Below are positions 60,970 to 62,641 of a stretch of DNA of 64,000 nucleotides, piece by piece (the first letter of the stretch is position 1; each line of letters begins with the position of its first letter). The DNA is from Shigella phage ESh25. The stretch is taken from the sequence record ON528735, one strand, 5' to 3'. The notes under the pieces were generated by a model that ran no database searches, was not told where the DNA came from, and saw only the letters and a list, made by a program, of their open reading frames with translations. The translations under genes and the position numbers were made by a program.

Positions 60970-61066
60970 TTGTACGAAACGCCGGGATTCGAACCCGGTT
61001 ATTAAGCAGTTGACGCTACTTAATATTTTTAAAAGGCCATATCTCGACCATATCCGAACGTTCCGT
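60970..61066 (-). ncRNA. tRNA-like stable RNA (acceptor stem + T-arm, enlarged interior, no encoded CCA)
   Basis: ACGGAAC...GTTTCGT acceptor pairing and CCGGG-TTCGAAT-CCCGG T-arm; reminiscent of T4 small stable RNAs. Confidence 0.35.
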
Positions 61067-61238
61067 CAAAAACGCTACTCGGCTTACGGCAAAGATATTT
61101 CCTCGAATCGATAATTCGGTGCGCCGTTTCTGCTGTGATATAAGGGGACATTAACAAAACATAAAGATTTATTAATGCCAGTCCTTAAACAGGGAACATC
61201 AGTCCGACGACTTACCGGTAGCGACCCGGCTTCTTGTT

Positions 61239-61314
61239 TGGTCGAGGCAGTAGGAATCGAACCTACGACCTAGGACTTAGAAGGTCCTTGCTCTTCCTTC
61301 TGAGCTATGCCTCG
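61239..61314 (-). tRNA. tRNA-Arg (anticodon UCU)
   Basis: Manual fold: 7 bp acceptor, D and T arms, loop CTTCTAA, encoded CCA. Confidence 0.75.
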
Positions 61315-61318
61315 GATT

Positions 61319-61393
61319 TGGCGGACGTGATAGGATTCGAACCTATAACCAATCGCTTAACAGGCGATCGCTCTGCCATTGAGCTACACATCC
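61319..61393 (-). tRNA. tRNA-Asn (anticodon GUU)
   Basis: Manual fold: loop CTGTTAA, GGTTCGAAT T-loop, encoded CCA. Confidence 0.7.
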
Positions 61394-61397
61394 AAAT

Positions 61398-61484
61398 TGG
61401 TGGGGAGTGGTGGAGTCGAACCACCCGAGTCGCAATGACAATGGATTTACAGTCCACACCGCTACCTCTACGGGATAACTCCCC
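61398..61484 (-). tRNA. type II tRNA-like, possibly tRNA-Tyr (GUA)
   Basis: 87 nt; acceptor GGGGAGT/ACTCCCC, T-arm GGTGG-TTCGACT-CCACC, long variable arm, candidate loop CTGTAAA; D-arm irregular. Confidence 0.45.
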
Positions 61485-61493
61485 AAATTAATT

Positions 61494-61568
61494 TGGTGGC
61501 CCTGGGTGGAATTGAACCACCATCTGGCGATTATGAGTCGCTTGCTTGAACCTTCCAGCTACAGGGCC
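61494..61568 (-). tRNA. tRNA-Ile/Met type (anticodon CAU)
   Basis: Manual fold: loop CTCATAA, encoded CCA. Confidence 0.75.
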
Positions 61569-61569
61569 T

Positions 61570-61645
61570 TGGTGCTGATTGACGGAATCGAACCGCCGAC
61601 CTTCTCATTACAAGTGAGTTGCTCTACCTACTGAGCTAAATCAGC
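61570..61645 (-). tRNA. tRNA-Thr (anticodon UGU)
   Basis: Manual fold: loop CTTGTAA, encoded CCA. Confidence 0.75.
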
Positions 61646-61650
61646 AAAAC

Positions 61651-61740
61651 TGGCGGAGGCGATAGGATTTGAACCTATGAGTCGCCGGAGCGACTGCCGG
61701 TTTTCAAGACCGGTGCATTAAACCACTCTGCCACGCCTCC
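61651..61740 (-). tRNA. tRNA-Ser (anticodon UGA), type II
   Basis: Manual fold: long variable arm, loop CTTGAAA, encoded CCA. Confidence 0.75.
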
Positions 61741-61743
61741 AAA

Positions 61744-61751
61744 TATTTATA
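61744..61751 (-). promoter_or_regulatory. possible late promoter TATAAATA at segB 3' end
   Basis: Exact 8-mer on minus strand overlapping last segB codons, a few nt 5' of tRNA-Ser; could be chance in AT-rich DNA. Confidence 0.3.
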
Positions 61752-62355
61752 TATTGTTAATTTGATTTAGAATTCTTTTTGCTTGAGTATGACTTACGCC
61801 AATATGCTTAGCATATTTAGATAATTCACCCCGCTTAGAAAAATCATATAATTTAGAAATTTCTATTCTTCTTTTTCTTTCATCCGCAGAAACTTTTGCT
61901 TCGTTTGCTTTTGCTATTTTACGTTTAGCTTCTTGAGAATGAGTTTTACCAGCAAAGCCATTTTTCATTAATCCATTTGAAGACCATCCTTTTAATTTTC
62001 CGTTAGAATGTGCCTTTTTAACACCCAATGAAATTAATTCGCGTTGCTGATCTGTCATAGGATAATTATTTATATGATCCCATCCACCTTCACCTCCAAG
62101 TTTTAAATTATACACATCTGGTCTATTTAAAAACTCTTCTGTGACAATATTTTTCTCGGCTTCAAGCATAGATTCTTTATCATCAAAATACTCTAATATT
62201 TCTTTAGAAAAATTTTCTATGCCATATTTATCTTGGGCTCTTTTTAATAATTTACCAGAACCCATATATCCATCATCTAAATTTTCGGTAGAATGCACAC
62301 CAATATAAATTTTATTATTAATTTTATTTGTTATTTTATAAAGATAAAAATGCAT
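61747..62355 (-). CDS. segB: GIY-YIG homing endonuclease SegB
   Basis: FYLYKITNK...IYIGV motif; embedded in the tRNA cluster as in T4; track ORF starts at ATG 62397 (216 aa), I prefer ATG 62355 next to the motif. Confidence 0.8.
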   Translation of the reverse strand: MHFYLYKITNKINNKIYIGVHSTENLDDGYMGSGKLLKRAQDKYGIENFSKEILEYFDDKESMLEAEKNIVTEEFLNRPDVYNLKLGGEGGWDHINNYPMTDQQRELISLGVKKAHSNGKLKGWSSNGLMKNGFAGKTHSQEAKRKIAKANEAKVSADERKRRIEISKLYDFSKRGELSKYAKHIGVSHTQAKRILNQINNI

Positions 62356-62401
62356 ATCAGTCCCTAATAAAGAACTGAGCGTCTCACGACGAGTCATAAA
62401 T

Positions 62402-62475
62402 TGGAGCGGATAATGAGAATCGAACTCACATCATCAGATTGGAAGTCTGAGGTAATACCATTATACGATATCCGC
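62402..62475 (-). tRNA. tRNA-Gly (anticodon UCC)
   Basis: Manual fold: loop CTTCCAA, encoded CCA. Confidence 0.75.
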
Positions 62476-62480
62476 AAATT

Positions 62481-62567
62481 TGGTGCGAGAAGTGGGACTC
62501 GAACCCACAAGGAAATCATTCCGCAGCATTTTAAGTGCTGTGCCTTTACCAATTTGACCATTCTCGC
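62481..62567 (-). tRNA. tRNA-Leu (anticodon UAA), type II
   Basis: Manual fold: long variable arm, loop CTTAAAA, encoded CCA. Confidence 0.75.
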
Positions 62568-62568
62568 G

Positions 62569-62641
62569 CTGGGAATAAAGGACTCGAACCTTTGCATCTA
62601 GCAGTCAAAGTGCTATGCCTTACCAACTTGGCTAATTCCCA
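62569..62641 (-). tRNA. tRNA-Gln (anticodon UUG), no encoded CCA
   Basis: Manual fold: loop CTTTGAC; abuts tRNA-Leu (dimeric precursor arrangement). Confidence 0.7.

Follow-up and report, generated by a model that had tools for sequence, protein, structure and literature searches.

The T-even tRNA region of Shigella phage ESh25: a tRNA set unlike that of T4, a SegB-like endonuclease gene and the stable RNAs rnaD and rnaC

Shigella phage ESh25 (record ON528735) carries a minus-strand tRNA cluster at positions 60970-62641 of the 64,000-nucleotide (nt) stretch of DNA analysed here, hereafter the window. We are highly confident that this region is the standard T-even (Tequatrovirus) tRNA-region transcription unit, represented here by an allele that sequenced relatives also carry, and nothing in the analysis contradicts the T-even identification. 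The 1.9-kb region is 97-98.5% identical end to end to ~50 Tequatrovirus genomes, including ECML-134, bov9_1, PhiZZ30, RB18, AR1 and RB51, and partial matches extend to more than 1000 T-even-like records; the window is ~98% identical to Tequatrovirus ECML-134, bov9_1 and RB18. An initial annotation of the window, made from its sequence, had described a tRNA cluster with a non-T4 complement, split by segB and followed by a tRNA-like stable RNA. What it observed is accurate, far beyond chance, and its interpretation holds in outline but fails on three points: where the tRNA-like RNA begins and ends, the overlooked rnaD gene, and which seg gene this is and where it starts.

The tRNA cluster and its transcription unit

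ARAGORN was run on both the cluster interval and the whole window, and its complete output for the 64 kb consists of nine tRNA genes, all on the minus strand, with the identities and order that had been proposed from manual folding. With the Rfam tRNA model (RF00005), whose gathering score is 29, eight of the genes reach 59-74 bits (E-values of 1e-11 to 1e-15); the sole Rfam listing for the ninth, tRNA-Tyr, is a sub-threshold tRNA-Sec match of 35 bits. The Asn and Tyr calls are both supported by ARAGORN, the former also by its Rfam score of 74 bits and the latter by identity at 86 of 87 positions, a single-nt difference, to the tRNA-Tyr of phage T6, an experimentally studied tRNA (PMC13096335). 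No tRNA-Pro gene was found by ARAGORN in the entire 64 kb. The departures from T4 that had been remarked, a missing Pro and additional Tyr and Asn, therefore stand, and the gap is larger than described in that the CAU and Arg genes are also non-T4 alleles (63% and 62% identity). The Gln and Leu genes are separated by a single base, and CCA is encoded in every tRNA gene of the cluster but Gln. The features of the region are as follows.

62711-62735, minus strand: putative MotA-type middle promoter (TGCTTTA at 62735-62729, 12-nt spacer, -10 element TATTAT at 62716-62711)
62569-62641, minus strand: tRNA-Gln(UUG), ARAGORN (called as 62568-62641) and Rfam; no encoded CCA; 73/73 identical to T4
62481-62567, minus strand: tRNA-Leu(UAA), type II, ARAGORN and Rfam; CCA encoded; 87/87 identical to T4
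62402-62475, minus strand: tRNA-Gly(UCC), ARAGORN and Rfam; CCA encoded; 74/74 identical to T4
61747-62355, minus strand: SegB-like gene filling the gap between Gly and Ser (longest open reading frame 61747-62397)
61651-61740, minus strand: tRNA-Ser(UGA), type II, ARAGORN and Rfam; CCA encoded; 97% identical to T4
61570-61645, minus strand: tRNA-Thr(UGU), ARAGORN and Rfam; 96% identical to T4
61494-61568, minus strand: tRNA with anticodon CAU, ARAGORN and Rfam; T2/RB14-type allele, 63% identical to T4 tRNA-Ile
61398-61484, minus strand: tRNA-Tyr(GUA), type II, 87 nt, ARAGORN; 86/87 identical to T6
61319-61393, minus strand: tRNA-Asn(GUU), ARAGORN and Rfam (74 bits)
61239-61314, minus strand: tRNA-Arg(UCU), ARAGORN and Rfam; T2/RB14-type allele, 62% identical to T4 tRNA-Arg
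61118-61237, minus strand: rnaD (species 2 stable RNA), 120 nt, mapped from the T4 annotation
60973-61111, minus strand: rnaC (species 1 stable RNA), 139 nt, mapped from the T4 annotation
60893-60922, minus strand: strong intrinsic terminator 3' of rnaC (stem of 10 base pairs (bp), 7 of them G-C, followed by a T-run)

The tRNA with anticodon CAU has the acceptor stem GGCCC/GGGCC and an anticodon stem-loop, GCGA-CUCAUAA-UCGC, like those of E. coli tRNA-Ile genes. Its G1-C72 bases are paired and it is therefore not an initiator; both stems are of the Ile2 type, and the C1.A72 mismatch and three G-C anticodon-stem pairs that mark initiators are absent. The closest E. coli match is a prophage tRNA, 81.6% identical over the full length and labelled tRNA-Ile by PGAP. 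Judged against the ileX and metT sequences, the acceptor and anticodon stems are closer to ileX, and the acceptor stem carries the Ile2-type pairs C4-G69 and C5-G68, which are determinants for TilS. The gene most likely encodes tRNA-Ile2, which would read AUA after lysidine modification.

The 119 nt immediately 5' of tRNA-Gln differ from T4 at 5 positions, and the TGCTTTA/TATTAT arrangement found there fits the published MotA middle-promoter consensus; the promoter is called because of this near-identity together with the MotA box. A sigma-70 scan of the region returned 10 matches against 8.5 expected, which is background, did not pick up the MotA-type promoter and was not used. In T4, the middle promoter of the tRNA region was placed just 5' of the cluster, a single precursor of ~1.75 kb is made, and transcription is thought to stop past the species I RNA gene (PMC2330249). 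The promoter and terminator arrangement of the window agrees with this single-precursor picture. Transcription from the middle promoter would accordingly yield one long minus-strand precursor carrying, in order, Gln-Leu-Gly, the homing-endonuclease mRNA, Ser-Thr-Ile2(CAU)-Tyr-Asn-Arg, rnaD and rnaC, and ending at the terminator near 60.9 kb. Host tRNA-processing enzymes would then excise the tRNAs and stable RNAs, with RNase P acting at the 5' ends, trimming of the 3' ends and CCA addition to Gln. Since 6 nt separate the seg stop codon from the 5' end of tRNA-Ser, the same processing should also free the nuclease mRNA from the precursor.

Two terminator hairpins of nearly the same sequence, AGCCCCGACCGAAAGGTTGGGGCT and AGCCCCGACCAAAAGGTTGGGGCT, both with TTTTTGG directly after them, occur on the minus strand at 60899-60922 and 60344-60367 and bracket an open reading frame (ORF) of 157 codons at 60375-60848. 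Its RB18 counterpart, of the same 474-nt length and in the same position, is RB32ORF132c, and no T4 gene is annotated there. The ORF looks like a cassette inserted via recombination at the repeated terminator.

The tRNA complement and the SegB-like gene

The tRNA complement differs from that of T4 at boundaries where endonuclease genes lie. Phage RB14 has the order Gly-Pro-Ser-Thr-Ile-Tyr-Asn-Arg and no seg gene; in the window, a seg cassette cleanly replaces Pro, the alignment with RB14 reading Gly-ATTT-(seg cassette)-ATATTT-Ser with no tRNA-Pro remnant beside the seg ORF. The downstream genes CAU-Tyr-Asn-Arg constitute a 3' module of the T2/RB14 type. The intact Tyr-Asn pair is present in ~395 phage records and the RB14-type tRNA-Pro in ~350, and among T2, T6, RB14, RB18, G4500, bov9_1 and T4, which we inspected, only T4 lacks Tyr. 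In T4 x T2L crosses, T4 SegB excludes the T2-type module (PMC2330249). We propose that cassette exchange driven by homing endonucleases, and not a special adaptation, would have produced a tRNA complement unlike that of T4: the CAU-Tyr-Asn-Arg module would have been replaced in T4 by T4's own segB, and insertion of a different SegB-like GIY-YIG endonuclease, with a homing target at the Gly/Pro junction, would have displaced tRNA-Pro in the lineage of ESh25.

Codon supplementation is the classical explanation of the T4 tRNAs, and codon counts over the 70 window ORFs (34% G+C) fit such a role. As fractions of the codons for the same amino acid, CAA accounts for 0.66, UUA 0.33, GGA 0.33, UCA 0.26, ACA 0.29, AUA 0.13 and AGA 0.19 in the window ORFs, and in E. 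coli for ~0.35, ~0.13, ~0.11, ~0.12, ~0.13, ~0.07 and ~0.04, respectively. The codons read by the cluster are thus used about two to five times more than in E. coli; Asn and Tyr make up 5.8% and 4.4% of the residues encoded by the same ORFs. The tRNAs would read the A-ending or AT-rich codons that are favoured by a phage of 34% G+C.

Several points weigh against this overall account. The codon CCA still represents 35% of Pro codons in the window ORFs (10.9 per 1000), so that codon usage does not account for the loss of tRNA-Pro, and fine optimisation of the tRNA set is evidently lacking. Homing at Gly|Pro and the attendant displacement of Pro are deduced from two insertion sites and the endonuclease-free RB14 allele. 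Finally, the literature reports no function for rnaC and rnaD (PMC3014915, PMC9697503, PMC12685909).

The extra tRNAs, and Tyr in particular, might instead be kept as spares against tRNA-cleaving defence nucleases, with Seg retained to amplify them. In the T6 system, over-expressed tRNA-Tyr relieves Septu immunity and SegB-dependent amplification of Tyr-segB gives escape (PMC13096335), and by this precedent the near-identical tRNA-Tyr of the window could also replace host tRNA destroyed by such defences. By blastn the tRNA-Tyr gene has no counterpart on E. coli chromosomes, but ~270 E. coli plasmids of ~70-112 kb carry a tRNA-Tyr with 93% identity to it, which suggests a tRNA-Tyr in circulation among mobile elements. 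However, Septu also cleaves the T6 tRNA-Tyr, so that protection is a dosage effect; the seg gene of the window does not lie beside Tyr, from which it is separated by Ser, Thr and CAU; and the Seg DNA-binding domain is unlike that of the T6 enzyme tested. By analogy with T6, a contribution of tRNA-Tyr to counter-defence is plausible; as the explanation of why these genes and Seg are retained, we consider counter-defence a real possibility, though not the probable one. On the one plasmid that we inspected, pEC881_2 (109 kb; locus L041, 3001-3087), tRNA-Tyr belongs to a cluster Asn-Tyr-Thr-Ser that is preceded by a DNA ligase gene and followed by an integrase gene, and the plasmids with this tRNA-Tyr may be phage-plasmids. 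Recent capture of the extra tRNAs from the host was also considered and is unsupported, Tyr having no chromosomal E. coli match and Asn showing generic tRNA similarity only.

The presence of Tyr and Asn and the absence of Pro could alternatively reflect adaptive tuning to codon usage or host range, with no by-product of mobile elements involved. All codons read by the nine tRNAs are over-used relative to E. coli, and Asn and Tyr are abundant residues, as such tuning would have it. We nevertheless find it rather unlikely, in view of the continued weight of CCA among Pro codons though tRNA-Pro is gone, and of relatives with nearly the same genome that keep Pro (RB14, T2, G4500), add His, or lack Ser and Asn (T6). 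The boundaries of the differences, moreover, coincide with seg genes and seg relics, and the T4 tRNA region has been reported to be non-essential (PMC2330249). Endonuclease-driven cassette exchange accordingly remains our preferred explanation of the complement.

The gene that splits the cluster had been taken for segB. A GIY-YIG seg gene does lie between Gly and Ser, but it is neither a full-length nor a positional orthologue of T4 segB. Its GIY-YIG domain scores 26.8 bits against the Pfam cut-off of 22.6, with intact motif residues, and its YIG motif matches T6 exactly, including Y17 and G19, both of which are essential in T6 SegB (PMC13096335). NUMOD3 is borderline (20.1 bits, cut-off 20.4) and the helix-turn-helix (HTH) match is weak. 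By BLASTP, residues 15-131 of the longest ORF (1-117 from the conserved Met) are 83% identical to T4 SegB, and the C-terminal ~85-100 residues have no significant similarity to T4 or T6 SegB. Likewise, the DNA of the leader and catalytic domain is nearly identical to T6/T4 segB and the identity stops at the linker between the domains. The junction ATTTATGAC directly follows the upstream tRNA in both the window and T6, this being Gly in the former and Tyr in the latter, and the insertion site, Gly|Ser, is not the Ile|Arg site of T4.

The C-terminal half has relatives of its own. Its 107 residues are at least 95% identical in 55 phage records (100% in most of those listed), including RB51, RB18, AR1 and ECML-134, and ~70% identical in Klebsiella phages. 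One of these, UTI-K1 (Jiaodavirus), has a full-length orthologue, 61% identical and with the same leader, between tRNA-Gly and tRNA-Pro. The T-loop core recognised by SegB, GGTTCRANTCC (T4 SegB cleaves at tRNA-gene 3' ends; PMC2330249), has 9 occurrences in the window, where chance would give 0.1, and all of them are in the cluster (8 in tRNAs and one in rnaC). From the comparisons of its domains and position, the gene looks like a distinct lineage of SegB-like homing endonuclease with a DNA-binding half linked to the Gly/Pro location, and on our reading its catalytic module is shared or has been exchanged with T4/T6 SegB. That the ORF is simply T4 segB relocated within the cluster, the same enzyme with the same specificity, would account for the 83% identity over residues 15-131 and the near-identical leader DNA, and segB is the name used by the RB18 annotators, but such a relocation seems improbable given C-terminal ~100 residues with no detectable similarity to T4/T6 SegB that are 70% identical to the Klebsiella-phage homologue at Gly-Pro and 33% identical to a relic ORF of T2.

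The UTI-K1 gene itself (locus L056, 1390-2052) is an intact ORF of 220 codons that is unannotated and runs at its 3' end into the first 10 nt of tRNA-Pro. The T2 ORF, T2_137 (locus L055, 1609-2010), lies between tRNA-Ser and tRNA-Met, where it occupies the tRNA-Thr position of other phages; its 133 residues match the C-terminal half of Seg only (33% identity, E-value 8e-16) and include no GIY-YIG domain, so that it appears to be a homing-endonuclease relic.

The start of the seg gene had been placed at an ATG a few nt from the CCA of tRNA-Gly. The longest ORF between Gly and Ser (216 codons, 61747-62397) does begin with an ATG 4 nt past this CCA, but the true start is probably the conserved AUG at 62355, 42 nt downstream, which gives a gene of 202 codons. 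We prefer this AUG because the T4 SegB alignment begins at Met codon 15 of the longest ORF and T6 segB is annotated from the equivalent Met, because the codons 5' of it are out of frame in Klebsiella phage UTI-K1, and because a Shine-Dalgarno-like AGGGA lies 5 nt 5' of it. The AGGGA is within the 9-bp stem of a leader hairpin:

62357-62378, minus strand: leader hairpin UCAGUUCUU-UAUU-AGGGACUGA, ending 2 nt before the conserved AUG

The leader, which is common to T6 and UTI-K1, folds at -14.1 kcal/mol (z -2.3). An analogous hairpin in the leader of T4 segB has been proposed to occlude translation (PMC2330249, PMC2988022), and by this analogy the hairpin of the window probably acts as a brake on translation of the nuclease.

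The stable RNAs rnaD and rnaC

The 270 nt 3' of tRNA-Arg align with T4 rnaD and then rnaC. Only one stable RNA had been described after tRNA-Arg; rnaD (61118-61237), which lies between Arg and rnaC, was missed. It directly follows tRNA-Arg as in T4 and is identical at 103 of 120 positions, the 5' and 3' thirds being nearly invariant and the middle hairpin variable; its fold has a conserved 5' hairpin, CCGG-GUCGCUA-CCGG, and a long closing stem, with 5 compensatory pairs in the consensus. A convergent SNP in rnaD has been reported by an evolution study (PMC12685909). The rnaC gene, 3' of rnaD and 5' of the terminator, is homologous to its T4 counterpart over the full length (136 of 139 positions) and scores 172.7 bits with R1, the covariance model that we built for this RNA. 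In T4 infection rnaC accumulates as a stable RNA of ~140 nt, seen by northern blot with a probe spanning the 5' 40 nt (PMC9697503). It has no Rfam family, and the window copy gives no Rfam match at E<=1 and no default ARAGORN call.

The ~97-nt element that had been described after tRNA-Arg, with a perfect acceptor stem, a T-arm and an enlarged interior, corresponds to 60972-61066 on the minus strand, the last ~95 nt (the 3' two-thirds) of rnaC. Its 8-bp stem, ACGGAACG with CGUUUCGU, exists in the window sequence, and a pairing ACGGAACG/CGTTTCGT adjoins the T-arm CCGGG-TTCGAAT-CCCGG. When introns are allowed or the threshold is lowered, ARAGORN reports 60972-61066 either as an intron-containing tRNA-Leu(taa) or as a tRNA with a 4-base anticodon. 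The element is not a canonical tRNA, having a 10-bp stem and 6-nt loop at the anticodon position, and rnaC, with no 7-nt anticodon loop, is not a decoding tRNA; it is a tRNA-shaped but non-decoding RNA. A tRNA-Pro hidden in the element was considered as well and rejected, since permissive ARAGORN never gives Pro and the element is rnaC.

For the structure of rnaC, homologues were taken from our phage collection (T4, T6, G4500, Kanagawavirus Q7622 and Gelderlandvirus Melville), from IMG/VR by means of DNA patterns and from one metagenome contig, and 19 distinct sequences were aligned. A loose IMG/VR pattern, TTTGACG N35-60 GTAGCGTCAAC, returned 32 loci, and of the 22 that it added R1 matched two (L022, which is truncated, and L029); a single metagenome scan gave 5 loci, including one real homologue (L054). 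The fold has a terminal stem of 7 positions in which the annotated 5' end pairs with the 3' strand (C-G, G-C, R-Y, U.U, U.U, C-G, G-C, the two U.U being conserved), a composite arm of ~70 nt in the place of the D-arm, a 10-bp arm with a 6-nt loop, and a canonical T-arm. In the R1-fitted alignment of the 19 sequences the fold pairs 94.8% of cells, with compensatory changes at 27 of 54 pairs, while register-shifted controls of the fold all drop to ~40% paired; in an independent MAFFT alignment of 12 sequences 11 of 49 pairs are compensatory. Covariation supports a cloverleaf-like fold of 139 nt closed by the true 5' end. The ~97-nt boundary is not supported because the internal stem is without covariation and the terminal stem covaries at the annotated T4 5' end; a tRNA-like stable RNA with a T-arm does follow Arg, but neither the boundaries nor the proposed acceptor stem is conserved, and the description as tRNA-like with an enlarged interior is fair for the whole 139-nt RNA.

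That the element is nonetheless an independent pseudo-, intron-containing or otherwise unusual tRNA, processed to ~95 nt with ACGGAACG/CGUUUCGU as its own acceptor stem, is suggested by the 8-bp pairing, which is perfect in Tequatrovirus and 92% paired overall, by the permissive ARAGORN call and by the GenBank record of G4500, which has a 94-nt tRNA-Lys(ttt) there, but this is very improbable: compensatory changes are absent from the pairing, 8 of 19 sequences have A.C at pair 51-143, and Melville and L029 lose two more pairs; the 5' strand of the pairing is part of a local hairpin, itself 98% paired with 3 compensatory pairs; the terminal stem swaps A-U to G-C in 9 of 19 sequences; T4 rnaC is annotated as 139 nt with its 5' end exactly at the terminal stem, and the northern probe spans the 5' 40 nt (PMC9697503); and, besides the missing 7-nt anticodon loop, default ARAGORN and the Rfam tRNA models are silent.

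Two loops of the 139-nt fold are invariant and complementary to each other:

61064-61069, minus strand: inner-hairpin loop UUGACG of rnaC, invariant in 19/19 sequences
61010-61015, minus strand: loop CGUCAA of the 10-bp arm of rnaC, invariant in 19/19 sequences and complementary to UUGACG

All 6 pairs between them are possible in each of the 19 sequences and the stems that carry them co-vary, which suggests an intramolecular kissing-loop contact, or a ligand shared by both loops; since neither loop varies, covariation cannot prove the contact. No description of this complementarity was found in the literature searched, which also contained nothing specific on species 1 RNA as a tRNA-like molecule and no functional study of rnaC in defence. 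A speculative role, to which we give little credence, is that of a dedicated tRNA mimic whose fold is locked by the kissing loops and which would serve to occupy a host factor that binds tRNAs, as its decoy or sponge; the factor could be a tRNA-targeting defence nuclease or an enzyme of processing or modification. We know of no function for rnaC some 50 years after its discovery, and the covariation-supported structure, the covariance model and a testable tertiary contact are what the analysis leaves of value here, in that they could help to assign one.

Conservation of rnaC extends to at least three named genera of Tevenvirinae (Tequatrovirus, Kanagawavirus and Gelderlandvirus) and to unclassified phage contigs in IMG/VR. 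In Dhakavirus VR5 and SHP1 and in the unclassified phage CUA3 (loci L042-L044), rnaD is joined directly to the trailer CACTTGCC...GCAGGTGG, which in Tequatrovirus comes after rnaC; in Kanagawavirus Q7622 (L004), rnaC follows immediately after tRNA-Met and there is no rnaD. The two RNA genes behave as separable cassettes. Many GenBank records show one to three "hypothetical proteins" over rnaC/rnaD, and few (RB6, Kha5h and ATK48) annotate either RNA; the window ORFs that overlap rnaC, at 61029-61157 (minus strand) and 60869-61114 (plus strand), are probably spurious. A recurrent misannotation is thereby exposed, in which rnaC/rnaD appear as hypothetical proteins and, once, as "tRNA-Lys".

Comparison with known T-even phages

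With T4 (NC_000866, 70.9-72.5 kb; Gln-Leu-Gly-Pro-Ser-Thr-Ile-(segB)-Arg-rnaD-rnaC, 8 tRNAs) the window shares the neighbourhood and strand; the promoter regions are nearly the same, the Gln, Leu and Gly genes are identical and those for Ser and Thr almost so, and both clusters contain a seg gene. The window differs in lacking Pro, in having Tyr and Asn, in carrying other alleles of CAU and Arg, in the encoded CCA of its Ser gene, and in the seg gene, which is at Gly|Ser in the window and at Ile|Arg in T4 and has an unrelated C-terminal half. RB14 and T2 resemble the window in their Gln-Leu-Gly genes and in the order CAU-Tyr-Asn-Arg followed by rnaD and rnaC; they differ in keeping tRNA-Pro between Gly and Ser and in having no intact seg, T2 having a DNA-binding-domain relic in place of Thr. 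These are presumptive recipient alleles for the endonuclease of the window. The tRNA-Tyr of T6 is 1 nt different and its seg leader and catalytic domain are nearly identical, but its segB directly follows Tyr and has a T4-type C-terminus, whereas the seg gene of the window follows Gly and has another DNA-binding half.

The closest relatives have the same allele. In RB18 and bov9_1 the same tRNAs and a homing endonuclease are annotated in the order found in the window; ECML-134 and bov9_1 are colinear with the window, and RB18 and several others have an extra tRNA-His and an ORF after Arg, by which their matches to the window are split into 2-4 pieces. Within the group of RB18, RB51, AR1, ECML-134 and bov9_1, the seg gene is named variously "segB", "SegB-like", "segD" or "homing endonuclease". 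Beyond the T-even phages, Seg shares with GIY-YIG endonucleases of the I-TevI type an N-terminal catalytic domain, a linker and a C-terminal NUMOD3/HTH-like module (architecture as in PMC2330249); it differs in being free-standing and not intron-encoded, and in its weak HTH match and a NUMOD3 score (20.1 bits) just below the cut-off (20.4).

Every component of the region is already known: work on T4 has characterised the tRNA region, both stable RNAs (species 1 and 2) and SegB, and the allele is present in ~50 GenBank genomes. The cluster leaves existing knowledge unchanged, the T-even tRNA region having been correctly recognised; what is possibly new is the occurrence in at least three genera of rnaC, an RNA with two invariant complementary loops and no Rfam family. 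Set beside its relatives, the cluster is also a clear example of how Seg endonucleases with swapped domains reshape the tRNA sets of phages: a single catalytic domain occurs joined to at least two different DNA-binding halves, at three sites, Ile|Arg in T4, Tyr|Arg in T6 and Gly|Ser in the window, and each of these insertions goes with the loss of adjoining tRNA genes.

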